DNA of 64,000 nucleotides from an uncultured delta proteobacterium (GCA_963695875.1 CAVOID010000008.1:192001-256000), one strand, 5' to 3'; shown: positions 12,270 through 55,066, counted from the stretch's first letter. Notes: a model not told the origin generated them from the sequence alone. Numbers and translations: made by a program.

Positions 12270-13934
12270 ATGTTACATGAAGAAAATATGGCTTCGAGAC
12301 TTCGATGGTTAGTGATATCGAGAGTCGCAATCGTAACCTTTCTTTTAGGTATAACCACATTCTTTAATATACAGAAAACAGAACTACTGCCTGAGACGTC
12401 GATCACATCACTTTATATCATTTTTGCACTAACCTACTTCCTTTCAGTAGTTTACTTAATTCTTTTAAAGTTTGTTAAAAACCCCAAATTGAACGTATAC
12501 ATCCAGACCTTCTCAGATGTGGCATTGATAACAGGTCTTGTGTACGTAACAGGTGGAATTAGAAGTATATACTCGGTTCTTTATCCTTTGGTTATCATAT
12601 ACTCAGTTTTGTTTTTAGGAAAAAGAGGCGGACTCATTATCGCCTCCATTTCCAGCATTCTATACGGCTTATTACTTGATTTTGAATATTACAACGTTAT
12701 TCCTCCGATAAAATCTGCGGCAATTCACGATTATGACTTGAGTGCAGGGTACGTCTTTTCGAGAATCTTCATACACATTTTATCTTTTTATATAATCGCA
12801 TTGGTTGCCAGTTATGCAGTTGAACAAGAGAAGAAAACAAGGGTGCTTCTTGCCGAGAAAAGAACTGCCTTTGACAAACTTGATTTATTACACAGGATTA
12901 TTATTCAATCGGTCGATACAGGTATTATGACAATCGATCTCCAGGGCAGGATAAAATCTTTTAACAGGGCTGCAGAAGTAATATCGGGATTTGCCTTCGC
13001 TGAAATAGAAAATAGAAATGTCGTTGAAATATTTCCAGGCTTCGCACAGATGAGGGAGATTCTCAACGGAGAAGATAAAAGAGGTTCGGCAAAAAACAGA
13101 TACCATATGGATTTCGTAAACAAGGAAAATCAAATATCGATATTAGGGTATTCGGTATCAACTCTTAAGGATAATAAAGAGAAAATAATTGGAGACATCG
13201 TGATATTCCAGGATCTTACATCTATAATCAAAATGGAAGAAGCCCTCGAAAGAAGTAGAAAGCTTGCCATCATAGGTGAAATGGCTGCAGGTCTTGCCCA
13301 CGAGATGAGAAACCCTCTTGCGTCAATCAGCGGATCAATTCAAATCCTCAATAAGGATCTTGAATTAGGTGCAACAGACGAGAGGCTAATGCGAATAATT
13401 CTCCGGGGGAAGGATCAGCTCGAAAGTATAATAAAGGATTTTCTGCTACTTGCGAGACCGGCGCCGGGAAACAAAGAAAACATTTTTATAAAGGAAATTA
13501 TAGATGATGTAGTTGAATCCATTCATTTTGTGCCTGACTGGAATGATGGCATCAAGGTTTTTCTTTCGCTATCGGATAATTTGACAGTTCATGCAAACAA
13601 GACGGAAATGAAGGAAGTAATGTGGAACCTTATCCTGAATGCTGTTCAAGCTATGCCCGATGGGGGACTTTTGTCACTGGAGACGAGAAAGAAATTATCC
13701 GGTGATAATACAGATGAGTATCTTGAGATACTGGTGAGTGATACTGGTTGTGGCATTGATGAAACATATTTGAATCAGATTTTTGAACCGTTTTTCACGA
13801 CAAAGGAGAGAGGAACAGGCCTCGGTCTCGCCATAGTGAACAGAATTGTCGAGGGATATACCGGAACCATTAAGATTGAAAGCGAGATTGAAAGAGGGAC
13901 AACATGTACTATCTCTTTACCCTTTAATAAATAA
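12270..13934 (+). CDS. pilS: PilS-like membrane sensor histidine kinase (TM region + PAS + HisKA + HATPase)
   Basis: Several N-terminal TM helices with D...LVYVTGG..S motif, AHEMRNPL, DTGCG, FFTTKERGTGLGL. Confidence 0.75.
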   Translation: MLHEENMASRLRWLVISRVAIVTFLLGITTFFNIQKTELLPETSITSLYIIFALTYFLSVVYLILLKFVKNPKLNVYIQTFSDVALITGLVYVTGGIRSIYSVLYPLVIIYSVLFLGKRGGLIIASISSILYGLLLDFEYYNVIPPIKSAAIHDYDLSAGYVFSRIFIHILSFYIIALVASYAVEQEKKTRVLLAEKRTAFDKLDLLHRIIIQSVDTGIMTIDLQGRIKSFNRAAEVISGFAFAEIENRNVVEIFPGFAQMREILNGEDKRGSAKNRYHMDFVNKENQISILGYSVSTLKDNKEKIIGDIVIFQDLTSIIKMEEALERSRKLAIIGEMAAGLAHEMRNPLASISGSIQILNKDLELGATDERLMRIILRGKDQLESIIKDFLLLARPAPGNKENIFIKEIIDDVVESIHFVPDWNDGIKVFLSLSDNLTVHANKTEMKEVMWNLILNAVQAMPDGGLLSLETRKKLSGDNTDEYLEILVSDTGCGIDETYLNQIFEPFFTTKERGTGLGLAIVNRIVEGYTGTIKIESEIERGTTCTISLPFNK

Positions 13935-13984
13935 CAGTATTGATGTATTGTGCAAAATAATTATGTTTTGCAGGGGAATGTCGA

Positions 13985-15349
13985 ATGGCAAAGATTCTAG
14001 TCGTGGATGACGATCAAGGAATGAGAGAATTTCTTGAAATCATGCTAACTAAAGAGGGGCATGACGTGACAAGTGCAGTTGATGCAACGAAAGCCCTGAA
14101 CCGTTGCAAGAAGGATCATTTTGATCTCATACTTACAGATTTAAAGATGCCAAAAGTCGATGGAATTGAATTTCTGAAATCAGTCAAGGATGTTTCTCCG
14201 GAAACAATGGTAATACTGATTACTGCCTATGCATCTCCGGAAACGGCAGTATCCGCCATGAAAGAAGGGGCATACGACTATATAGAGAAAGGCATTGATG
14301 TAGAAGAACTAAAGTCAATCATCAGCGGTGCTCTTGATAAGAAAGGGGTCGGGGAAACTGATGCTTTATTTATAAAGGTAGTTGAAGATGCCGTTTCATT
14401 CAGCAATATGATAGGGAAAAGCAGAGGCATGCTCAACGTATATAAAGACATTAAAAAAGTGGCAGAAACTCCGACAAACGTTTTAATCCTAGGTGAAAGT
14501 GGAACAGGCAAGGAACTTGTCGCTAAAGCTATCCATGAAAACAGCCCCAGGAAAAAAATGCCCTTTACTGTTGTTAACTGCGGTGGCGTTCCTGAAAGTC
14601 TGCTTGAGAGTGAATTCTTTGGTCATATGAAGGGTTCCTTTACCGGAGCACACGTCGATAAGCCCGGGCTTTTTGAGATCGCAAAAAATGGAACTATATT
14701 TCTGGATGAAATCGGTGAGTTACCCCCATATCTTCAAGTAAAACTTCTTAGAGTTGTGCAGGAAAAGACGTTCAGAAGGGTAGGGGGCGCGGAGGATATC
14801 AAAGTAGATGTCAGAATTATCTCAGCCACGAATAAGAATCTGGAAAAGAAAGTTAAGGATGGCTCCTTCAGGGAGGATTTATTTTATCGCCTCAATGTCA
14901 TACCAATACATGTGCCGCCCTTGAGAGAACGTAAGGAGGATATCCCTGTCTTAACTAAACATTTCATTGAAAAGTATTCCACGGCGTTTGGCAAAGAAAT
15001 CAAAACGATTTCATCCTATGCCATGGAACTCCTCATGAACTATCCATTTCCCGGCAATGTCAGAGAACTTGAGAATATTATTGAACGCAGTGTTGCTCTG
15101 GAAACATCAAATATCATATTGCCGGAGAATCTTTTAATATCGGGAAATATACAGGATGTAAGCGACTTTTCGGATGTTAACATACCGGATGATGGAATAG
15201 ACTTGAATGATGAAGTGGCAAAGTATGAGAGGTGCTTAATAGAGGAAGCTCTGAAGAAGGTGAAAGGATCTAAGACGAAAGCTGCTGAGATGCTTCGGGT
15301 AAGTTTTGATTCATTACGATACAGGATTGAAAAACTCGGCATAGACTGA
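13985..15349 (+). CDS. pilR: PilR/NtrC-like sigma54-dependent response regulator
   Basis: REC domain, GESGTGKE, GSFTGA variant of GAFTGA, FREDLFYRL, C-terminal HTH; adjacent to PilS-like kinase. Confidence 0.75.
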   Translation: MAKILVVDDDQGMREFLEIMLTKEGHDVTSAVDATKALNRCKKDHFDLILTDLKMPKVDGIEFLKSVKDVSPETMVILITAYASPETAVSAMKEGAYDYIEKGIDVEELKSIISGALDKKGVGETDALFIKVVEDAVSFSNMIGKSRGMLNVYKDIKKVAETPTNVLILGESGTGKELVAKAIHENSPRKKMPFTVVNCGGVPESLLESEFFGHMKGSFTGAHVDKPGLFEIAKNGTIFLDEIGELPPYLQVKLLRVVQEKTFRRVGGAEDIKVDVRIISATNKNLEKKVKDGSFREDLFYRLNVIPIHVPPLRERKEDIPVLTKHFIEKYSTAFGKEIKTISSYAMELLMNYPFPGNVRELENIIERSVALETSNIILPENLLISGNIQDVSDFSDVNIPDDGIDLNDEVAKYERCLIEEALKKVKGSKTKAAEMLRVSFDSLRYRIEKLGID

Positions 15350-15368
15350 AATTAATAAGAATTTGCAC

Positions 15369-15397
15369 TTGACATTGATGCGGTTTGGTTTTATAAG
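15369..15397 (+). promoter_or_regulatory. Sigma70 promoter of the leader peptide / ABC transporter operon
   Basis: TTGACA (15369-15374), 17-nt spacer, TATAAG (15392-15397). Confidence 0.75.
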
Positions 15398-15429
15398 CAC
15401 GCCACGGGAAGAATTAAAGTAAGAGGGAA

Positions 15430-15513
15430 ATGATGGACATGCTGTGCATAAGGGTACAAATATTTTTTACTTTTTTTGCATTTTTTAGTGGGGTCTGCCT
15501 GCCGCGCTCATGA
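15430..15513 (+). CDS. Phe-rich attenuator leader peptide MMDMLCIRVQIFFTFFAFFSGVCLPRS
   Basis: SD AGAGGGA directly upstream, alternative ATGs at 15430, 15433 and 15439; six TTT codons in eight positions (15463-15486); TGA at 15511-15513. Confidence 0.85.
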   Translation: MMDMLCIRVQIFFTFFAFFSGVCLPRS

Positions 15514-15569
15514 CCTGGAATTGTTAATAGAGCCGCGGGCAGACCGTTTAGCTGTCCGCGGCTTTTTTT
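15492..15569 (+). promoter_or_regulatory. Transcription attenuator: antiterminator and overlapping intrinsic terminator
   Basis: Antiterminator GGTCTGCCTGC (15492-15502) / GCGGGCAGACC (15535-15545); terminator AGCCGCGGGCAG (15531-15542) / CTGTCCGCGGCT (15552-15563) followed by T-run to 15569. Confidence 0.88.
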
Positions 15570-15573
15570 ATGT

Positions 15574-15610
15574 AAAAGGCTGTGGATTCTCCAGAGCCTT
15601 TTTTTATTTT
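15574..15610 (+). terminator. Second, weaker terminator-like hairpin in the leader
   Basis: AAAAGGCT-G-TGGA-ttc-TCCA-G-AGCCTTTTTTT-ATTTT. Confidence 0.55.
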
Positions 15611-15624
15611 ACAGGGGGATTGAT

Positions 15625-16830
15625 ATGAAAAAAATATTCTATGGGATTCTTTGCACAGTACTTACGGGATTCATTCCTTTGTGTCTTATTTCGGGCGCAG
15701 ATGCGAAAACAATAAAAGTCGGTGCAGCAATAAACATGACTGGTCCTGCATCCACCTGGGGGCAATTTCATGCCAAGGGTCAGCAGGACTATTTCCGGTA
15801 CGTAAACGAGGTTAAAGGCGGCGTCGGAGGGAACAAGATCGAAATGATTCTTGTTGATACGGGGTACAAAGTCCCGGAGGCTGTCTCGGCTGTGAAAAGA
15901 TTTGCCATTCAGGATGAAGTTGATATGATTGCAACCTGGAGTGCCGGCGAAGGGCTGGCAGCAAAACCGATTATCCAGCAATATAAAATACCAGCCATCA
16001 ATTATTCTACGAGCTGGGAGATTCTTGAGTCACCGATAAGCTACATGTATTTGCCCTTTGGCAGCTATCGGTTGGACAGTTATGCAATTCTCGAATACAT
16101 ACGCACTATACACAAGGGAAAAGATGCACCGAAGGTAGGACTTTTGACATATAACAACGCATATGGCCGCTCTATACATCAACCTTGCAAGGAATACGCA
16201 AAAAAAATAAATATTAACATTGTTGCCATTGAAGAGTTTCCGCCGAAGACTGTGGATTTAACCACTGAATTGCTGCGTTTGCAGAAAAGCGGTGCGGAAT
16301 ATGTATTCATGCAAATACTTCCTGCCGCTATTATAACGGCATTCAAGAGTGCGGACCGCATCAATTATAACCCGGCATTTTTCGGTACCTGGACATCAAC
16401 AGACCCTGATTTTTTTAAGCTTGGCAAGGGCTTGATAAAAGATCGCCTGCGCATTCAGTTTTCAGGAGGTCTCCCTGTTGATAAGAGTCAGGGCATGAAA
16501 GTTATGACGGAACTGTGGAAACGCTACAAAACGGTCGATAAGTTCGATGCCTCATACTGGGAAGGCGTAGTGATAGGCATGATAATGGAAAGGGCATTCA
16601 TCCGGGCCAATCAAAAATATAAAGTAATCAACAGAGAAACAATCAACAAGGCTATGGAGTCGTTTAAGAATGAAGATTTTGGCGGTCTTGTTCCGAATAT
16701 TACATACGCAGCGGATGATCATGGGGGATCATTCAAAGCCAGGATTGTAAAAGTCAGAGAAGACGGTTCATATGCACCTATGACGAATTTCTTTAATCCC
16801 CTGAAGGAAAAGATCAAGTTATTGAAGTAA
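15625..16830 (+). CDS. ABC transporter substrate-binding protein (LivK/PBP1 family, aromatic or organic acid type)
   Basis: Signal peptide, IKVGAAINMTGPAS, VNEVKGGVGG..IE....DT.Y, NNAYGR. Confidence 0.88.
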   Translation: MKKIFYGILCTVLTGFIPLCLISGADAKTIKVGAAINMTGPASTWGQFHAKGQQDYFRYVNEVKGGVGGNKIEMILVDTGYKVPEAVSAVKRFAIQDEVDMIATWSAGEGLAAKPIIQQYKIPAINYSTSWEILESPISYMYLPFGSYRLDSYAILEYIRTIHKGKDAPKVGLLTYNNAYGRSIHQPCKEYAKKININIVAIEEFPPKTVDLTTELLRLQKSGAEYVFMQILPAAIITAFKSADRINYNPAFFGTWTSTDPDFFKLGKGLIKDRLRIQFSGGLPVDKSQGMKVMTELWKRYKTVDKFDASYWEGVVIGMIMERAFIRANQKYKVINRETINKAMESFKNEDFGGLVPNITYAADDHGGSFKARIVKVREDGSYAPMTNFFNPLKEKIKLLK

Positions 16831-16843
16831 CCGTATCGGATCT

Positions 16844-17671
16844 ATGAAAGCATATCGAGGAAAACCAAGCATATTCGATACCCGGAATGCGGAAGATAGG
16901 ATTGCAGAACTTAATGTCTGTAACCTTTCCTTGAGTTTTGGCGGTGTCAAGGCACTGAGCGATATCGATCTTTCTGTGAGTACCGGTGAACTGGTGGCAA
17001 TCATTGGGCCGAACGGTGCCGGAAAGACAAGTCTTTTGAACTGTATAACGGGCTTCTACAGACCGCAGAAGGGACGCATTCTTTTTAACGGCAAGGATAT
17101 AACTCATTTGCCACCTCACCATCTTGTCCGGATAGGCATAGGAAGGACTTTTCAAAACATCGAGCTGTTTCCCGGCATGACAGTTCTATCAAACATGCTT
17201 CTTGCTCGCCATAACCACTGCAAATATGGGATCGCTCCGGCTTGTCTTTTCTCATCATCAATACGAAAAGAGGAGATTCATCACCGTCGCGTCCTGGAAG
17301 AACTGATCGATTTTTTGGAAATCCAGGCCATCAGGAAAAAGACTGTGGGATCATTGCCGTACGGTTTGATGAAGAGGGTTGAACTGGGCCGTGCACTTGC
17401 CCTGGAGCCGGCTCTTCTGATTCTTGATGAACCATTCGCAGGAATGAACCTCGAAGAGAAGGAAGACATGGTACGTTTCTTGACAGAGATGAACCAAGCG
17501 TGGGGTCAGACGATGATTCTGGTAGAACATGACATGTCTATAGTGATGAGTATTTCTCAGCGAATTGTAGTATTGAACTTCGGTGAAAAACTGGCTGAGG
17601 GTAACCCGGATCAAATCAGAAACCATCCAGAGGTAATCAAAGCATATCTCGGTGATACAGTCAGTGTTTGA
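16844..17671 (+). CDS. ABC transporter ATP-binding protein (LivG-like)
   Basis: GPNGAGKT, RTFQN, LPYG..KRVELGRAL, LDEP, VIKAYLG. Confidence 0.92.
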   Translation: MKAYRGKPSIFDTRNAEDRIAELNVCNLSLSFGGVKALSDIDLSVSTGELVAIIGPNGAGKTSLLNCITGFYRPQKGRILFNGKDITHLPPHHLVRIGIGRTFQNIELFPGMTVLSNMLLARHNHCKYGIAPACLFSSSIRKEEIHHRRVLEELIDFLEIQAIRKKTVGSLPYGLMKRVELGRALALEPALLILDEPFAGMNLEEKEDMVRFLTEMNQAWGQTMILVEHDMSIVMSISQRIVVLNFGEKLAEGNPDQIRNHPEVIKAYLGDTVSV

Positions 17672-19629
17672 TGAATAAGGTATTTCCTGTGGCCAGTTAT
17701 AAAATTGCGGATGATGAAATACTTGCATCTTTATCTCAATATACGTTGCCCCAGATTTTGTCAAAGCAGGCGGAGAGACTCGGATCGGAAGAGACAGCTA
17801 TTCGAGAAAAGGCATATGGTATCTGGCAGACATATAGCTGGCAGGATTATTACCGATATGTGAAAAGAACCGGACTCGGCTTAATCGCTATCGGACTTAA
17901 AAAAGGGGACAATGTTGGCATCATTACAAACAACGTCCCGGAATGGCTCTTTAGTGAAATCGGCTGTCAGTCAGTCGGCGGGATATCCCTCAATCTTTTT
18001 ACGTCTTCTGTTGCGGAAGAATTGTGTCATGCCCTGAGTCGTATTAAAGCGGCCTATATCATCGCCCAGGACCAGGAGCAGGTAGACAAGATAATTGAAA
18101 GTCGTGAGAAACTGACTCATGTTTGCCGGGTCATCTATATAGATCCAACTGGGATGAGGACATATAAAGACAACCCCTGGCTACTCAGTTTTTCTGATCT
18201 TTTAGAGTTAGGCGAGAATCTTGACCGTGAAAAGCCTGATTTTTTTTCAGAGGAATTGCAGAAGGGCAGGAGGGACAATATTGCCATAATGATACAGACC
18301 TCGGGGACGATGGGAATTTCAAAACTTGCCATGCTGTCACATCGGAACATAACCGAAATGGCCAGGAAGTGGGTGGAAGCTCTTCAAATAAAACCCGGGG
18401 GAAACTGGATTTCAATATCTCCGCCGGCATGGATTGTAGATCAGATGTGGGGAGTAGGTGTGGCGCTCCTGGGCGGGATGGTCATGAATTTTCCTGAAAT
18501 GCCGGATACGATAGCCGAAGATTTTCGAGAAATCGGATCATCAATTATCATCACGTCATCGCGTTTCTGGGAGGATCTGGCCTCACGTATTATGGTTAAA
18601 ATGGACGATGCCGGTTTTATCAGGCGTAACCTCTTTGTCTATTCCATTAGAATAGGGAAAAAGGTTGTGGGGATTCAATCACAAAAAAAGGTTGTTCCCG
18701 GATATCTGAATTTACTTTATCGAATTTCCTCAGTAATGATCTACAGACCCTTGCTCGATAGAGTAGGATGTGCCTGTTTTAAAGGCGCCTTTACGGGAGG
18801 TCATCCTATTAGTCCTGATGTGATTCATTTTTTTCGCGCTATTGGATTAAATCTTAAGCAGTGTTACGGTCTGACCGAAGCAGGTGGAATATTCCAGGTT
18901 CAGCCCGATGGCGAAGTAAAGCTGGAGTCAGTAGGGAAGCCGCTGCCCAGGACCCTTGTGAAAATAGCAGATGATCAGGAAGTTCTGGTCCAGAGTGATT
19001 CAAACTTTGTAGGATACTATAACGATTTCAGAGCGACAGAAGATGCCTTTGACGGCGGATGGCTCAGAACCGGTGACGCAGGTTATATAGATAAAGACGG
19101 TCATCTCGTGATTATCGGGCGTAAGGGCGATATTATCAAAAACAAAGACGGAGAAGCATTTTCACCGGATTTCATAGAGACACGTCTCAAGTTCAGTCCA
19201 TATATCAAGGAAGCCGTAATGTTTGGTGAGGGGCGTCCATACATCACCGCACTTATTAATATTGACATGGGCAACGTAGGGAACTGGGCTGAAGAGCGCA
19301 TGATACCGTACACAACATACATAGACCTGTCTCAACAATCAGCTGTTGAGGACCTCGTACTTGATGAAGTCAGAAGGGTAAATATCAATCTGCCGGATAC
19401 CATGAAGGTCCGGAAATTCATATTGCTCTATAAACTCCTGGATGCCGATGATGAGGAGCTGACGAGAACGGGGAAGGTGCGCAGGAGATTTATTTATGGA
19501 CTCTATCTTAAACTCATAGAAGCGATGTATACAGGAAGGGATCAGGTTGATATCAAAACAAAAATCCAGTATCGAGACGGGCAGATAGGCGAAATTGAAA
19601 CTACAGCGAAAATAATTAAGGTTATTTAA
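17671..19629 (+). CDS. Long-chain acyl-CoA synthetase-like AMP-binding enzyme embedded in the ABC operon
   Basis: QTSGTMGISK, YGLTE, GWLRTGDAG, ELTRTGKVRR. Confidence 0.88.
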   Translation: MNKVFPVASYKIADDEILASLSQYTLPQILSKQAERLGSEETAIREKAYGIWQTYSWQDYYRYVKRTGLGLIAIGLKKGDNVGIITNNVPEWLFSEIGCQSVGGISLNLFTSSVAEELCHALSRIKAAYIIAQDQEQVDKIIESREKLTHVCRVIYIDPTGMRTYKDNPWLLSFSDLLELGENLDREKPDFFSEELQKGRRDNIAIMIQTSGTMGISKLAMLSHRNITEMARKWVEALQIKPGGNWISISPPAWIVDQMWGVGVALLGGMVMNFPEMPDTIAEDFREIGSSIIITSSRFWEDLASRIMVKMDDAGFIRRNLFVYSIRIGKKVVGIQSQKKVVPGYLNLLYRISSVMIYRPLLDRVGCACFKGAFTGGHPISPDVIHFFRAIGLNLKQCYGLTEAGGIFQVQPDGEVKLESVGKPLPRTLVKIADDQEVLVQSDSNFVGYYNDFRATEDAFDGGWLRTGDAGYIDKDGHLVIIGRKGDIIKNKDGEAFSPDFIETRLKFSPYIKEAVMFGEGRPYITALINIDMGNVGNWAEERMIPYTTYIDLSQQSAVEDLVLDEVRRVNINLPDTMKVRKFILLYKLLDADDEELTRTGKVRRRFIYGLYLKLIEAMYTGRDQVDIKTKIQYRDGQIGEIETTAKIIKVI

Positions 19630-19639
19630 GGTATAGCTT

Positions 19640-20518
19640 ATGAGCTTTTTTCTACAACTTTTCATAAATGGTATAAGTATTGGTTTTTTATATGGGCTGT
19701 CCGCCATGGGTTTTGTCATGATTTTTAAATCTTCCAGCGTCCTAAATTTTGCACATGGCGAGTTACTTGCCTTAGGGGCCTTCTTTTTTCTGGCCATGGT
19801 GACATGGGCCAAATTACCTATTGTGGTTGCCTTCCTGGTGACCCTCGTAGGTTGTTTTGTTTTGGGATTTCTGATTGAAAGATTATTTCTGCGTCCTCTT
19901 ATCGGTGAGCCTCTCATCTATGTGATCATGCTGACAGTGGGACTGGCTTCTATGTTCAGAGGTATAATGCTCTTTATATGGGGAGGAAATTTGCAGACCT
20001 ATCCTGATTTTCTGCCTGAATCTCTCAGTATTCGGTGGGACGTGATTAACGTACCGCCGGCCTATACCGCAGCTCTTATTATCGGGGTACTTTTTCTTAT
20101 ACTTTTTGGTCTTTTCTTCAAGTATTCTTCACAAGGCATATTTATGAGATCTGTAGCTGATAATCAAAAAGCGGCACTCTCATTGGGGGTTCATGTTCAA
20201 AAGGTCTTTGCACTATCGTGGGCTATTGCTGCACTTGTGGCCGGCATGAGCGGTATTGTAATGGGTGTTATAAATGGCATTAACGTGCATGATCTCAGCG
20301 CCATTGGACTCAAGGTATTCCCTGTGGTTATCCTTGGAGGTCTGGACAGCATTGGCGGTGCGATTCTTGGCGGTCTCATTATAGGTATTCTGGAAACATT
20401 CACCGGGGGCTATATTTCACCGTCGCTCCGTGATGTTGTACCATATATTGTACTTGTATTTATCCTCATGATAAAACCATATGGGCTTTTTGGCCTGGTG
20501 GAAATTGAAAGGGTATAA
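19640..20518 (+). CDS. ABC transporter permease (LivH-like)
   Basis: LNFAHGE, MRSVADN..AA.SLG, VVILGGLDSIGGA. Confidence 0.92.
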   Translation: MSFFLQLFINGISIGFLYGLSAMGFVMIFKSSSVLNFAHGELLALGAFFFLAMVTWAKLPIVVAFLVTLVGCFVLGFLIERLFLRPLIGEPLIYVIMLTVGLASMFRGIMLFIWGGNLQTYPDFLPESLSIRWDVINVPPAYTAALIIGVLFLILFGLFFKYSSQGIFMRSVADNQKAALSLGVHVQKVFALSWAIAALVAGMSGIVMGVINGINVHDLSAIGLKVFPVVILGGLDSIGGAILGGLIIGILETFTGGYISPSLRDVVPYIVLVFILMIKPYGLFGLVEIERV

Positions 20519-20525
20519 GTCAGTA

Positions 20526-21596
20526 ATGAAAAGATTTCATTTCCATCCCTGCGGTAATTACAGGGAAAAATACGAACAAGAAATTACTGTCTTCGAGACC
20601 GACTTCGGCAGACTTTGGCTGTGGATCGGCATTTTTCTCCTTTTCGTCATAGTTCCATTCATAAGCAGTCCTTATTTCCTACATGTACTGAATACAATCG
20701 GGATAGCATCAATTGCGGCGATCGGGTTAAATATCCTTATCGGATACACGGGACAGATATCTCTTGGTCACGGGGCCTTCATCGGCGTCGGGGCTTATGC
20801 CGCTGCAATACTTGCAACGTCAGCAAACATTCCTTTTCTTCTTAACCTGCCGATGGCCGGACTGGTATCTGCCCTGGTAGGTATGATTTTCGGCATACCA
20901 TCCGGACGTCTCAAAGGCCTGTACCTCACAATTGCAACGCTTGCTGGCCAGATTATCATTGAATATGTTTTAATCCACTGGGAAAGTCTAACGAAAGGCA
21001 CTATGGGAATTACACTTCCCAGCCCCTCCATTTTTGGATTCGAATTAGCCAGCGATAAAGACTTCTTTTTTATGATATTCGTAAGCCTCATAGTAATGAT
21101 CTGGATAGCGGTAAACCTTATGAGAACAAAATATGGCAGAGCCTTTATTGCGATTCGAGATAATGACCGGGCTGCGGAAGGTATGGGTATTCCAATTTTC
21201 AGGTACAAGCTCCTTTCTTTTGGAATCAGCTCGTTCTATGCAGGCTTTGCCGGTGCAATATGGGCTTATTACATGGTCAGCATCACATCAGAACCATTCA
21301 ACCTGGGTCTCTCCGTCGAATACATCGCAATGGTGATCATAGGCGGCCTGGGAAGTATTACCGGTTCCATTTATGGCGCCATCTTTATAACCTTTTTGAA
21401 TGAAATTCTGAGATGGCTGACGGATATCGTGATGAACGTGGGAATCTTCACGGAAGCTGGTTTGAATGTGGCACCATTGAGAGAATTTTTCTTTGGACTG
21501 GCGATAGTTCTCTTCATTCTCTGTGAGCCGCGCGGACTTGCGGAGATATGGCGTATTATACGTTCCAACTTCAGGCTGTGGCCGTTTGCTTATTAA
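20526..21596 (+). CDS. ABC transporter permease (LivM-like)
   Basis: GYTGQISLGHGAF, RLKGLYLTIATL, GRAFIAIRDND.AAE.MGI; start moved to ATG 20526. Confidence 0.92.
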   Translation: MKRFHFHPCGNYREKYEQEITVFETDFGRLWLWIGIFLLFVIVPFISSPYFLHVLNTIGIASIAAIGLNILIGYTGQISLGHGAFIGVGAYAAAILATSANIPFLLNLPMAGLVSALVGMIFGIPSGRLKGLYLTIATLAGQIIIEYVLIHWESLTKGTMGITLPSPSIFGFELASDKDFFFMIFVSLIVMIWIAVNLMRTKYGRAFIAIRDNDRAAEGMGIPIFRYKLLSFGISSFYAGFAGAIWAYYMVSITSEPFNLGLSVEYIAMVIIGGLGSITGSIYGAIFITFLNEILRWLTDIVMNVGIFTEAGLNVAPLREFFFGLAIVLFILCEPRGLAEIWRIIRSNFRLWPFAY

Positions 21597-21607
21597 GAGT
21601 TATCCGC

Positions 21608-22411
21608 ATGACTGAAAGTACTATTCTCGAGATCAACAATATATCTGTCGTTTATTCAGATGTTATTCAGGTCCTTAAGGGAGTATCCCTTATCGTTGAA
21701 CGGGACTCCATTGTGTCCCTTCTGGGCAGCAACGGTTCCGGAAAATCGACAACGCTGAAGGCCATATCTGGCCTGCTTAAACCTGAAAACGGCAAGGTGA
21801 CGGAAGGGACCATTATGTATGATGCAAAGCCCATTCAGAATCAGTCTCCCGAGGTCATTACGCGCAAGGGAATAATTCAGGTTCTGGAAGGCCGTCAGCC
21901 TTTCAAATATTTGACTGTTGAAGAAAACCTTATTGTCGGAACGGCCATCAGGTGGCGGAAGCCTTATAAGAAAGATCTGGAAATGGTTTATCATTATTTC
22001 CCCGCCATATTGAAAAGAAGGAAGATGCTGGCCGGATATTGCAGCGGTGGAGAACTTCAAATGATTGTCATGGGAAGGGCTTTGATGGCCCACCCGGCTC
22101 TTTTGCTTTTGGATGAGCCTTCTCTCGGGCTTGCTCCCATGGTTGTGAAGGAAATATTTCAGATCATAAAAAAGATAAATGAGGAACAGGGAACAACAAT
22201 TATGCTCGTCGAACAGAATGCCAATATGGCCCTGCAGATTTCTGATTATGGTTATGTAATGGAAAATGGAAAGATCGTTATGGAAGGTGGTGCAAAGACC
22301 CTTGTTGAGAATCCCGATATAAAAGAATTCTACTTGGGTATGGGGGCAACGGGCGTGTTAAAATCATATAAAGATGTCAAATCATATCGCCGTCGAAAGA
22401 GATGGCTGTAA
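21608..22411 (+). CDS. ABC transporter ATP-binding protein (LivF-like)
   Basis: GSNGSGKST, SGGELQM, LDEPSLGLAP, VEQNA, C-terminal KSYRRRKRWL; start moved to ATG 21608. Confidence 0.92.
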   Translation: MTESTILEINNISVVYSDVIQVLKGVSLIVERDSIVSLLGSNGSGKSTTLKAISGLLKPENGKVTEGTIMYDAKPIQNQSPEVITRKGIIQVLEGRQPFKYLTVEENLIVGTAIRWRKPYKKDLEMVYHYFPAILKRRKMLAGYCSGGELQMIVMGRALMAHPALLLLDEPSLGLAPMVVKEIFQIIKKINEEQGTTIMLVEQNANMALQISDYGYVMENGKIVMEGGAKTLVENPDIKEFYLGMGATGVLKSYKDVKSYRRRKRWL

Positions 22412-22503: not shown

Positions 22504-23760
22504 ATGGCAGATTGTTATGATTATAAAGAATGTGTGCCTGTGGAAGAAAGAGAACGCAGGCGCTCACTACTAATAATGGAAATGCTCAAGTCGGGTTATC
22601 AAAAATCAAGTCGCATAAGAAAGATGTTTGCCCAGCTGAAGATGGATCATTCTGAAATTAAAACCCTGAGTGATTTCGAAAAACTTCCTGTTATCTCCAG
22701 GGGAAAGCTAATTGAGCTCGAAATGTCGGAACCTCCATACGGAGGGCTGAACAATTCAGACTCAGATGTTGATAGAATTTTTATTTCTCCTGGTCCTGTA
22801 TATGAACCACACCTCTCGGAGAATGACAACCTATGGGCAAGGGCATATTATGCTGCCGGCATCGGAAAGGGAGATGTGGTTCTCAATGCTTTTTCCTACC
22901 ACATGGTTGCTGCCGGCTTGACCTTCCATGGAGGATTAAGACACATTGGTGCTACAGTCATCCCTTCTGGAACTTCAAGTTCACAACTTCAGGTACAGTT
23001 AATTCGCGACCTATCTGTAACAGCTTATGCAGGCACTCCCAGTTTTTTAATGAGCATTATAAATAAAGCAGAAGAAATGGGTTATGATTTTAAGAAAGAT
23101 TTCAGGATGAGGCGAGCCTGCTTTGCCGCGGAACCTCTTGCGCCATCGTTGAGAGAAAAATTCGAGCGGGAATATGCTATTGACACATATCAGATGTATG
23201 GCGCAACGGAAGTGGGGGATGTATCTTTTGAATGCAGAGAAAAGAAAGGATGGCATATCTGTGAAGAAGTCCTTCTGGAGATTATTGATCCGGCCACAGG
23301 GAAAAGTGTGCCGCCTGGAACGATGGGTGAAGTTGTCGTTACCCGGTTCAATAACATTTTCTTCCTTTTCCGGTTCGGGACCGGTGATCTTTCAAGAGTA
23401 ATAGAGTCACCATGCACCTGCGGAAGAACATCGTTTCGCTTGGATGGCATTGCCGGACGAGTGGGCGATGCGGTGAAAGTCAGGGGACTTTTCATCGCAC
23501 CGAGTCAGCTTAATAAAATCAAGGAAAAATTCTATAGTGTTAAATTCCAGCTCCTTGTCAGCCGAACTTCTCATGAGGATATTTTAACCGTGAAACTGGA
23601 GCTGAAAGAGGCAGGAATGAATACCGTATCCCTGGAAGAGAACTTCAGGGATCATTTCAAAGATGTATGTACGGTGAGAATTGACCGTCTGGAATTTTTG
23701 AATCCCGGCACATTAAGAGATGATGATAAAATGATCGTCGATCAGCGCGAGTGGAAATAG
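22504..23760 (+). CDS. Phenylacetate-CoA ligase family protein (PaaK-like)
   Basis: SPGPVYEP, FSYH...AG, YGATE, RFGTGDLS, CTCGRT, GRVGDAVKVRGLFI.P. Confidence 0.8.
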   Translation: MADCYDYKECVPVEERERRRSLLIMEMLKSGYQKSSRIRKMFAQLKMDHSEIKTLSDFEKLPVISRGKLIELEMSEPPYGGLNNSDSDVDRIFISPGPVYEPHLSENDNLWARAYYAAGIGKGDVVLNAFSYHMVAAGLTFHGGLRHIGATVIPSGTSSSQLQVQLIRDLSVTAYAGTPSFLMSIINKAEEMGYDFKKDFRMRRACFAAEPLAPSLREKFEREYAIDTYQMYGATEVGDVSFECREKKGWHICEEVLLEIIDPATGKSVPPGTMGEVVVTRFNNIFFLFRFGTGDLSRVIESPCTCGRTSFRLDGIAGRVGDAVKVRGLFIAPSQLNKIKEKFYSVKFQLLVSRTSHEDILTVKLELKEAGMNTVSLEENFRDHFKDVCTVRIDRLEFLNPGTLRDDDKMIVDQREWK

Positions 23761-53271: not shown

Positions 53272-55066
53272 ATGAAAGCATTGATGTCGGGAAATGAGAG
53301 TATTGCAAGGGGTGCTTACGAACATGGAGTTCGCTTCGCATCCGGGTATCCGGGAACACCAAGTACTGAAATTATTGAGAATATTTCAAAGTATGATGGT
53401 GTCTATGCAGAGTGGTCTCCCAATGAAAAGGTTGCCCTTGAGGTTGGTATCGGTGCAGCTTTAGCGGGTGCAAGGGCTATGGTTGTTATGAAGCATGTAG
53501 GGGTCAACGTTGCTGCTGATCCGCTCTTTACCGTAAGTTATACAGGAACAAACGGGGCGCTCGTCATTATCACTGCCGATGACCCTTCTCTGCACAGTTC
53601 ACAAAATGAACAGGATAACAGAAACTACGCCAAATTCGCAAAGATACCTATGCTTGAGCCTGCGGATAGCCAGGAAGCCAAAGATTATATAAAAATTGCG
53701 TTTGATTTAAGTGAAAAGTTTGATACTCCTGTCTTTCTGAGGACAACCACACGCGTTTCCCATTCAAAATCCATCGTAGTTTTGGAAGAACCATCAGTCA
53801 CAGAGGATCGAACTGCTATACATTTTAACACCTCAAAATACGTCATGGTCCCTATCAATGCTCGTGCGAGAAGGGTTGAAGTTGAAAAAAGACTGCAAAG
53901 ACTCAGAGAATTTGCTGAAAATTTTTCTGAAAACAAGATTGAAATGAACGATCCCGAAGTTGGCATTATTACAGCCGGGATGTCATATAATTATACTAAA
54001 GATATCTTCCCCAATTATTCTTATCTAAAACTCGGAATGGTTTATCCGATACCCTCCAAGATGGTCCGGGAATTTGCCTCGAAAGTCAAAAAACTTTACG
54101 TGGTTGAGGAGCTCGATCCATTTATAGAGGAACAGGTTGCTGTATTGGGCATTAAGGTTGTCGGCAAGGAGATCTTTCCCTGTACAAACGAATTCGATCC
54201 CGGTGTGATTGAGCAGGCTATAAAAGGTGAGAAGACTGCAACTGTCAGCTTTGCCGAACATATCAGTTCCACCGAGACCTCCGAATCTTTGTCCCGGTTG
54301 CCCTCACAGAGGTCTGTTCTATGTCCTCGGAAAACTGAAGGTCTTTGTCACAGGTGATATCGGATGCTATACTTTATCATATATGAAACCGTTGGAAGGT
54401 CTTCATTCTTGTATCTGTATGGGCGCAAGTATCGGCATGGCGCATGGTATGAGCAAGGCTTTGAAGGATAAAGGGAAGGGGAAGGTTGTTGGTGTTATCG
54501 GGGACTCTACGTTTATTCATTCGGGCATAACACCGTTGTTGAATATGGCCTATAACAAAAGTGATGCAGTCATTGTTATATGTGACAACAGGACAACTGC
54601 AATGACGGGAATGCAGGAACATCCGGCAACCGGTTACACACTACAGGGAGAAAAAACAAAAGAGCTTGATTTTACGACCCTCGCCAAGGCATTGGGGATT
54701 GATAGTGTCCGTGTAATAGATCCGTACGAGATTAAAGCAACAAGAAAAGTGATGAACGAAGAATTGTCAAAACCTGGTCCTTCAGTCGTTATATCAAGGA
54801 GATCCTGTGTATTATTCAAGCGAAATATAAATGATGTACAAAAACCGCTTGAAGTCGATAGGAATATCTGTATCGGTTGCAAATCATGTATTGATCTTGG
54901 ATGTCCACCGATCTCGTGGATAAAGTTTGAAGACATGCCAGGTGATGGGATTAAAAAGAATGTGAAAAGACAAGAGGGTATTGCATTTATTGACCGTGAC
55001 CTTTGTAATGGCTGTACAATTTGTCAGCAGGTATGCAAAGTCGGTGCGATTGTTGAGGTTGATTAA
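53272..55066 (+). CDS. iorA: Indolepyruvate/aryl-pyruvate:ferredoxin oxidoreductase alpha subunit; apparent +1 frameshift near 54250
   Basis: SGNE.IARG, GYPGTPSTE, MKHVGVNVAAD, SSQNEQD; second ORF has RPP.LCPGCPH, GDIGCY, GDSTF.HSG, TAMTG.Q and a ferredoxin domain. Confidence 0.93.

Follow-up and report, generated by a model that had tools for sequence, protein, structure and literature searches.

What decides whether RNA polymerase enters an operon for an ATP-binding cassette (ABC) importer and an acyl-coenzyme A (CoA) ligase is the question raised by a short intergenic region in a 64,000-nucleotide (nt) stretch of DNA from an uncultured delta proteobacterium (GCA_963695875.1, CAVOID010000008.1:192001-256000). 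We refer to this whole stretch as the window and count positions from its first letter. Between a pilR-like gene and the gene for the substrate-binding protein of the importer lies a leader that carries a small open reading frame (ORF) with a cluster of phenylalanine (Phe) codons, followed by a series of overlapping hairpins. The sequence comparisons described here make it highly probable that this element acts as a transcription attenuator of the ribosome-mediated, leader-peptide type, with charged tRNA-Phe as the signal it senses. A Phe sensor of this kind had been put forward in an original prediction made from the window, and the conservation of the ORF, its codon signature, the pairing of its helices and the existence of paralogues with tryptophan (Trp) or mixed codons all argue for it.

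The promoter, the candidate Shine-Dalgarno sequence and the 27-codon ORF with six Phe codons in eight positions were found where the original prediction had placed them (Table 1). A pattern scanner had missed the promoter, as it demands a T at the last position of the -10 hexamer, and had reported just the inner 5 bp of terminator 1. The GAGGG motif, which we infer to be the ribosome-binding site of the leader ORF, precedes three in-frame ATG codons at spacings of 2, 5 or 11 nt. The second and third of these (15433 and 15439) would give ORFs of 26 and 24 codons, respectively, and the ATG at 15439 is the start codon conserved in relatives. The ORF ends with a TGA codon at 15511-15513. Its clustered Phe codons, all TTT, are arranged in three pairs (15463-68, 15472-77 and 15481-86). 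A site with at least six Phe codons in eight occurs only once in the six frames of the 64-kb window, block-shuffled sequence contains a mean of 0.035 such sites, and Phe makes up 4.8% of the codons in 11 neighboring genes.

The end of the ORF also contains segment 1, the 5′ arm of an antiterminator. The predicted 11-bp helix, which joins 15492-15502 to 15535-15545 and includes one U·G pair, was recovered, but it is actually longer, as folding extends it by pairing 15506-15509 with 15530-15533. Terminator 1, formed by segments 2 and 3, includes one G·U pair in its stem and ends in a run of seven T residues at 15563-15569. Because the antiterminator core and terminator 1 both use 15535-15542, the two helices are mutually exclusive, a point that had been claimed from the outset and can be read directly in the sequence. 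The single 12-bp terminator with its T-run was likewise in place, but a second terminator at 15578-15605, beyond the end of the predicted element at 15569, had been overlooked, as had the wider family to which the leader belongs. Relative to the antiterminator arm, the leader stop codon lies 2-9 nt away on the 3′ side and the first Phe codon 29 nt away on the 5′ side. A ribosome usually covers about 12 nt downstream of its A site, and if such footprints are assumed, this spacing is consistent with attenuation for stalls at the first four Phe codons.

A BLASTN search with 15350-15630 as the query against 61 related genomes returned matches in 32 of them, with the region 15463-15610 being 71-88% identical even in other families. 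The resulting ORF comparison set comprised 33 loci from 32 genomes and 9 families. All 33 loci contain an ORF in the homologous frame, which starts with ATG in 32 of them and with GTG in locus L027, and which holds 4-8 Phe codons in the pattern FFxFFxFF. The stop codon keeps its position in 32/33 loci, with a change from TGA to TAA in L025 and L026; in L033 it is reached 11 nt sooner, and its frame with respect to the RNA motif is different. Within the Phe block, we counted 149 TTT, 31 TTC and no CTT codons across the 33 loci, the T-to-C changes falling at third codon positions. The one TCT codon (L013) lies just outside the block, and the x positions use many codons. The indels found in the ORF preserve the frame, with 9 nt missing in L012 and 3 nt added in L011. 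As judged from this alignment, the TTT/TTC pattern and the in-frame indels show that selection acts on the Phe codons and on translation rather than on a T-rich spacer. Two overlapping sets of 33 loci each were available, namely the ORF comparison set and the best loci of the covariance-model search described below, and in each of them an in-frame Phe-rich ORF precedes the orthologous binding-protein gene in 33/33 cases. The conserved in-frame Phe cluster on which the original prediction had staked its case was hence retained in every orthologous leader aligned.

The alignments also revealed covarying helices. RNAalifold predicted both terminators from 33 sequences. For terminator 1 (50 sequences), 95.0% of cells were paired and 6/12 pairs were compensatory over 34 cells, while for terminator 2 (33 sequences) 82.7% of cells were paired and 5/9 pairs were compensatory; none of 500 shuffles reached the observed value in either case. 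The antiterminator helix between segments 1 and 2 (50 sequences) was paired in 96.0% of cells, as against 31-44% for slid controls, and contained one compensatory pair. This pair is a double change from G-C to A-U in L038, L040 and L041, and as its partner in the 3′ arm of terminator 1 has changed too, three positions co-vary. The hairpin between segments 3 and 4 (33 sequences) was paired in 89.4% of cells, with 3/12 pairs compensatory. In the window, the folding energies were -28.5 kcal/mol for segments 1-2, -24.5 for terminator 1, -18.5 for 3:4 and -16.2 for terminator 2, and all four hairpins fold in 33/33 sequences, the weakest 3:4 hairpin being that of L032 (-4.9 kcal/mol). An upstream segment, ACAGGCAGAA, is additionally able to pair with segment 1 in most relatives (69% of cells paired versus 30-38% for slid controls). 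The corresponding duplex reaches -8 kcal/mol or stronger in 30/33 loci, mostly -12 to -19, and its pairing with segment 1 would force termination when the leader is untranslated.

To describe the distribution of the element, a covariance model extending from the Phe block through terminator 1 (R1) was used. It matched 140/151 genomes of the order, representing 23/24 families, with a strong match (E ~1e-10 or better) in about 110 of the 151, and it also matched 41/146 genomes of other orders of the phylum. The best R1 loci all lie (33/33) directly before an orthologue of the binding protein with 72-100% identity and carry a Phe-rich ORF. When both locus sets are taken together, the Phe-type leader was verified in 13 families. 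The genome of the window, which is 82.6% complete, holds one copy; the only further R1 matches in it are weak and partial (E 0.057 and 0.126) and look like plain terminators. Among 44 loci found via the binding protein, 23 match the strict anchor pattern and three more display a variant with five consecutive Phe codons and a stop abutting the motif. The remaining loci are mostly 62-68%-identical homologues with a different leader, or have no upstream sequence. Those relatives of the binding protein that bear names are all metagenome-assembled genomes labelled Syntrophales, Syntrophaceae, Smithellaceae or Thermodesulfobacteriota.

The different leader is itself conserved. It is found ~100-300 nt before the 62-68%-identical binding-protein homologues of L045, L047-L054 and L075-L077, where a TTGCAA/TAAAAT-type promoter is followed by AAGAAAGGAGGTGRTG and GGATTCTTAAAAA motifs, and it contains no Phe ORF and gives no Rfam match. 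In L049, positions 1784-1846, several hundred bases before the binding-protein homologue, match the nhaA-I riboswitch family with 52.4 bits (gathering score 37).

The weaker R1 matches turned out to share this scaffold, including the GGTCTGCC arm and both terminators, but to have other codons in their leaders. Leaders with mixed Phe, tyrosine (Tyr) and Trp codons, such as those ending in SFNGFWSYYYFPWVCPLLLRN and FGFWFYYYYASVCLSRWRTW before the stop, are present in 11 loci (L110-L115, L124, L125, L127, L131 and L132). The gene after them encodes a DAHP synthase with a ferredoxin-like domain (by Pfam, in the two cases tested), and in genomes G002 and G064 pheA lies 2-3 kb beyond the DAHP synthase gene on the same contig. 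WWW leaders precede the gene for anthranilate synthase I (trpE), as assigned by Pfam in L126 with L128 being similar, and in L129 a WWW leader precedes the gene for a Phenol_MetA_deg outer-membrane protein, possibly a Trp-controlled channel for uptake. Loci from other families of the phylum (L150-L156) have leaders with Tyr, Phe and Trp codons before DeoC/LacD-family aldolases, which we take to represent, possibly, an alternative aromatic pathway, and a YYYYYYFW leader before shikimate kinase. These families also contain a leader ending in FFFFD and a stop before a 68%-identical orthologue of the binding protein. The codon content of the leaders thus follows the regulated pathway. We consider this the best reason to regard the ORFs as amino-acid sensors and to assign the operon in the window to Phe supply.

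In the genome of the window, a search for the ferredoxin-like domain of DAHP synthase yielded just an 88-aa ORF with no leader before it. This ORF (L157, G000:C8:160667-163864, outside the window) is followed by a separate 166-aa ORF resembling part of DAHP synthase, and the pair may be a split or decayed DAHP-synthase paralogue. The sister genome G002 has a copy with an aromatic leader. Its counterpart may simply be missing from the assembly here, as the genome is incomplete and contig C14 ends close to pheA.

The exchange of codons on a common scaffold bears on the explanations that compete with attenuation. The one that survives best, although we regard it as very improbable, is that a trans-acting protein or a small ligand switches the conserved RNA (GGTCTGCC ... 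GGCAGACC and two terminators) in the manner of a riboswitch or a TRAP/PyrR-like system, with the ORF being incidental or an auxiliary input. Such a switch could account for the primary sequence of segments 1 and 2, which is unusually conserved from one paralogous class to another and across the phylum, beyond the needs of pairing. However, the slow change of these segments is also explicable by segment 2 having to pair with both 1 and 3 and by segment 1 being coding as well, and what varies with the regulated pathway is not the RNA core but the codons of the ORF. The stretch that separates the arms is, moreover, short and variable, and an Rfam cmscan of 14800-16200 (4227 families, E up to 10) gave 8 chance-level matches and no leader, riboswitch or T-box family.

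Even less probable is that the ORF encodes a functional small hydrophobic peptide, for instance a membrane micro-protein, and that the hairpins are ordinary terminators of this small gene or of the pilR-like gene. The C-terminal sequence S-[GE]-V-C-L-[PL]-R-S is indeed highly conserved, and the terminators are downstream of a pilR-like gene in 16/33 related loci. Nevertheless, this conserved peptide tail coincides with the RNA pairing segment, and the RNA motif GGTCTRCC is also kept in loci with another frame or stop, namely with a stop 11 nt earlier (L033), at +13 (L066 and L069) or directly before the motif (L038, L071, L073 and L149). The N-terminus of the peptide is variable, with only the Phe codons held at the codon level, and the paralogues swap Phe for Trp or for Tyr/Trp/Phe according to the downstream pathway. 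As for the pilR-like gene, it is not seen in 17/33 of the fetched loci, whereas the binding-protein gene is downstream in 33/33, and a conserved promoter separates pilR from the ORF.

The least probable alternative is a small RNA as the main product: the terminated leader, ~165-200 nt long, would act in trans, and regulation of the operon would be secondary. With two strong terminators, a transcript of defined length and structure would be set free, and trans functions are reported for the Sinorhizobium trp attenuator RNA (rnTrpL) and its peptide (PMC7968998, PMC7298713), but the element always lies in cis before the same operon (33/33), and a trans function would be compatible with attenuation, as an added role.

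For attenuation by charged tRNA-Phe, we propose the following sequence of events. Transcription would start at ~15404, from the sigma-70-type promoter that directly follows the pilR-like gene, with the ribosome translating the leader ORF behind the moving RNA polymerase. When Phe is plentiful, the ribosome would pass the six Phe codons, reach the stop at 15511-13 and cover segment 1 (15492-15509). Segment 2 would then pair with segment 3, and terminator 1 would end transcription at 15569, with any read-through being ended by terminator 2 at 15605. When tRNA-Phe is scarce, the ribosome would instead stall 15-29 nt short of segment 1, at the early Phe codons (15463-15477). Segment 1 could then capture segment 2 as soon as it is made and so prevent terminator 1. 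Segment 3, freed in this way, would pair with segment 4 and disable terminator 2, letting the polymerase enter the operon. We include the 3:4 relay as a hypothetical step, logically needed because terminator 2 would otherwise stop every transcript; 3:4 would hold the 5′ arm of terminator 2.

Several observations weigh against this reading. The ribosome-binding site is either weak or placed at an odd distance, and any of the three ATGs could serve as the start codon. A check for transcript reads listed no RNA run containing the stretch, one run having a 0.09 share of its words. The last two Phe codons are only 6-9 nt from segment 1, and stalling there would be expected to cover the segment in part. 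The antiterminator is nearly invariant, so that its support consists of compatibility and of one compensatory event in three closely related sequences, and the covariation of the 3:4 hairpin does not exceed that of shuffles (57/500 reach it). Folding of the 226-nt leader did recover both terminators in the minimum-free-energy structure, but not the antiterminator (z -2.41); the switch must therefore be kinetic and co-transcriptional. The genus of the window is without the ACAGGCAGAA protector, the pairing there being -5.8 kcal/mol, weaker than in shuffles. The R1 model found no match in 11/151 genomes of the order, and L074, labelled Syntrophus aciditrophicus, has a 72%-identical homologue of the binding protein with neither a clear Phe ORF nor the GGTCTGCC arm in front of it. 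Finally, the operon contains no obvious Phe pathway, and the closest structure to its binding protein holds valine, the next being named a fatty-acid binder and others holding aromatic acids. As to L074, this locus retains the pilR-like gene, the promoter and the binding-protein gene, and the attenuator seems to have been lost or to have decayed.

Table 1 Features of the leader and the downstream operon, with positions in the window.
Feature	Position	Strand	Basis or remark
-35 hexamer TTGACA	15369..15374	+	Read in sequence; CTTGAC conserved in 20-locus alignment
-10 hexamer TATAAG, 17-nt spacer to -35	15392..15397	+	TATA invariant in 20-locus alignment
GAGGG, candidate Shine-Dalgarno sequence of leader ORF	15423..15427	+	Read in sequence
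Leader ORF, 27 codons, MMDMLCIRVQIFFTFFAFFSGVCLPRS and stop	15430..15513	+	Homologous in-frame ORF in 33/33 related loci
Regulatory codon block FF-T-FF-A-FF, six TTT	15463..15486	+	33-locus codon counts and shuffle test
Segment 1, antiterminator 5′ arm inside ORF end; core 15492-15502, extension 15506-15509	15492..15509	+	GGTCTGC invariant in 33 loci
Segment 2, pairs with segment 1 (antiterminator) or segment 3 (terminator 1)	15530..15545	+	Pairing, folding, covariation
Terminator 1, stem 15531-42 with 15552-63, 12 bp, 9-nt loop, T7	15531..15569	+	Folding and covariation, 50 sequences
Proposed relay hairpin 3:4, 15556-67 with 15574-85	15556..15585	+	Inferred; -18.5 kcal/mol, 89% paired
Terminator 2, stem 15578-86 with 15590-98, one G·G mismatch, T7 15599-15605	15578..15605	+	Folding and covariation
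Substrate-binding protein, Peripla_BP_6, LIV/HAAT type, first regulated gene	15625..16830	+	Orthologue 3′ of leader in 33/33 loci
LivG-like ATPase, 653-aa AMP-binding acyl-CoA ligase, LivH-like and LivM-like permeases, LivF-like ATPase	16844..22411	+	
PaaK-like (phenylacetate-CoA-ligase family) gene, probably co-transcribed	22504..23760	+	92-nt gap without terminator

The operon controlled by the leader is conserved as a unit. The order of its six genes, from the binding protein to the LivF-like ATPase, is kept in 4/4 and 18/20 related larger loci; in the other two of the 20, two hits fell under the coverage filter. A PaaK-like gene follows in 2/4 and 11/20 of these loci, and a terminator sought in the 92-nt gap before it in the window was not found. 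Its product scores below the equivalog cut-offs (210.7 bits for NF041878, cut-off 700; 187.1 for TIGR02155, cut-off 646.3), while the solved structures closest to it are all named phenylacetate-CoA ligase (E 3e-49). The resemblance to phenylacetate-CoA ligase is thus to be taken at the family level only. The 653-aa ligase showed no solved relative at E up to 1e-30. On the far side of the PaaK-like gene, the operon is adjoined by recJ on the other strand.

Upstream of the leader, a PilS-like histidine kinase gene (12270-13934) is followed by a gene for a PilR-type sigma-54 response regulator (13985-15349). This PilS/PilR-type pair (12270-15349) runs straight into the leader and the importer operon, and no pilin gene follows pilR. 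A sigma-54 -24/-12 promoter that would tie the operon to the upstream PilR-like activator was considered and rejected, since inspection of 15350-15400 by eye, with no formal scan, revealed no GG-N10-GC element with the right spacing.

The ligand of the binding protein was sought by a sequence search of solved structures and by Foldseek with a predicted model (pLDDT, the predicted local distance difference test score, 83.7). The nearest chain was a valine-bound Thermus protein with 22% identity, followed by a chain named as a fatty-acid binder and then by aromatic-acid binders, one of which holds phenylpyruvate. These structural neighbors do not decide between Phe and an aryl acid. From the leader and the gene content, the operon is most likely a Phe-starvation operon that imports Phe or an aryl-acid precursor. 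Two readings of its substrate may be distinguished: the importer takes up Phe as such, or it takes up an aryl-acid precursor that is then activated with CoA. The latter reading builds on a route of some anaerobes, in which reductive carboxylation turns phenylacetate into Phe. As pheA was found in all 5 genomes checked, including that of the window, the operon is therefore not the sole source of Phe.

A homologue of the indolepyruvate-oxidoreductase alpha subunit, an enzyme that such a route could employ, is encoded in the window at ~53272-55051, and it passes the cut-off in 4/5 genomes checked. We entertain, as a tentative and on the whole doubtful combination, that the leader is the Phe-only member of a phylum-wide modular family, in which the GGTCTGCC arm and two terminators are combined with exchangeable Phe, Trp or mixed cassettes, that it marks the widespread LIV-type importer with its embedded acyl-CoA ligase, often followed by a PaaK-like ligase, as a Phe-starvation operon serving aryl-acid salvage, and that the relay switches both terminators. 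Salvage would, within this same doubtful combination, consist of the uptake of an aryl acid such as phenylacetate or phenylpyruvate, CoA activation and Phe synthesis, with reductive carboxylation via indolepyruvate/phenylpyruvate:ferredoxin oxidoreductase as its equally tentative route. The indolepyruvate:ferredoxin oxidoreductase alpha homologue of the window (53272-55051) is itself split into two overlapping frames, the first matching profile positions 1-360 and the second 344-595. Relatives have a single frame of ~600 aa, and the split in the window may be a frameshift or an assembly error.

The layout of the element had been likened to that of the enterobacterial pheL (pheA) and pheM (pheST) attenuators. 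The logic is indeed the same, in that a short ORF with runs of Phe codons is read out via ribosome stalling and the 5′ arm of an intrinsic terminator can be captured by an upstream segment, though the Rfam test gave no homology. We take the Rfam family Phe_leader to be that of the enterobacterial pheL/pheM leaders, and the cmscan of 14800-16200 (E up to 10) detected neither sequence nor structure homology to them. The window element further differs from pheL and pheM in its target, which is a LIV-type ABC importer and acyl-CoA-ligase operon and not pheA or pheST, in the course of its ORF, which enters the antiterminator arm and stops just after it, in its two terminators in series, and in its occurrence in Syntrophales and other Thermodesulfobacteriota. 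The WWW paralogues are comparable to trpL of E. coli and Sinorhizobium, where consecutive Trp codons before trpE govern the choice between antiterminator and terminator. In classical trpL, segment 1 itself contains the regulatory codons and the 1:2, 2:3, 3:4 chain has a single terminator, whereas in the window the codons are upstream of the antiterminator arm and two terminators are present. The his, thr and leu leaders also use a relay of mutually exclusive hairpins, which passes the position of the ribosome to a distal terminator; their chains end in one terminator, while the relay proposed for the window (1:2, then 3:4) would switch two.

The mixed paralogue before DAHP synthase has a parallel in Corynebacterium glutamicum aroF, where a Phe-Tyr-Phe leader peptide is reported before a DAHP synthase gene (PMC4046766). 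C. glutamicum belongs to a different phylum and offers no evidence of a shared RNA scaffold, and the leader in the window is Phe-only and stands before a transporter operon. In the literature searched, which did not extend to subscription journals and supplements, we found no Phe or aromatic leader attenuator for Syntrophales or Desulfobacterota, nor one before a transporter operon. PMC2965389 makes no mention of 'Syntroph' or 'Deltaproteobacteria', and PMC545781 makes no mention of 'leader peptide', 'attenuator' or 'aromatic'. The mechanism is classical, then, but this leader family and its target operon appear to be undescribed.

These results would extend amino-acid-sensing leader-peptide attenuation to syntrophic and sulfate-reducer lineages, on a scaffold that is not in Rfam and that allows the annotation of hundreds of unannotated small ORFs and leaders. 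The occurrence of Phe, Trp and mixed-aromatic versions on one scaffold offers a clean natural case of modular attenuator rewiring, and the paralogous versions suggest a compact, low-leak, two-terminator design for engineered amino-acid sensors. The codon content of a leader would also serve as a natural function label, giving a role in Phe supply to a type of ABC-importer/acyl-CoA-ligase operon without a known substrate, and this assignment would bear on amino-acid cross-feeding and auxotrophy in anaerobic consortia.

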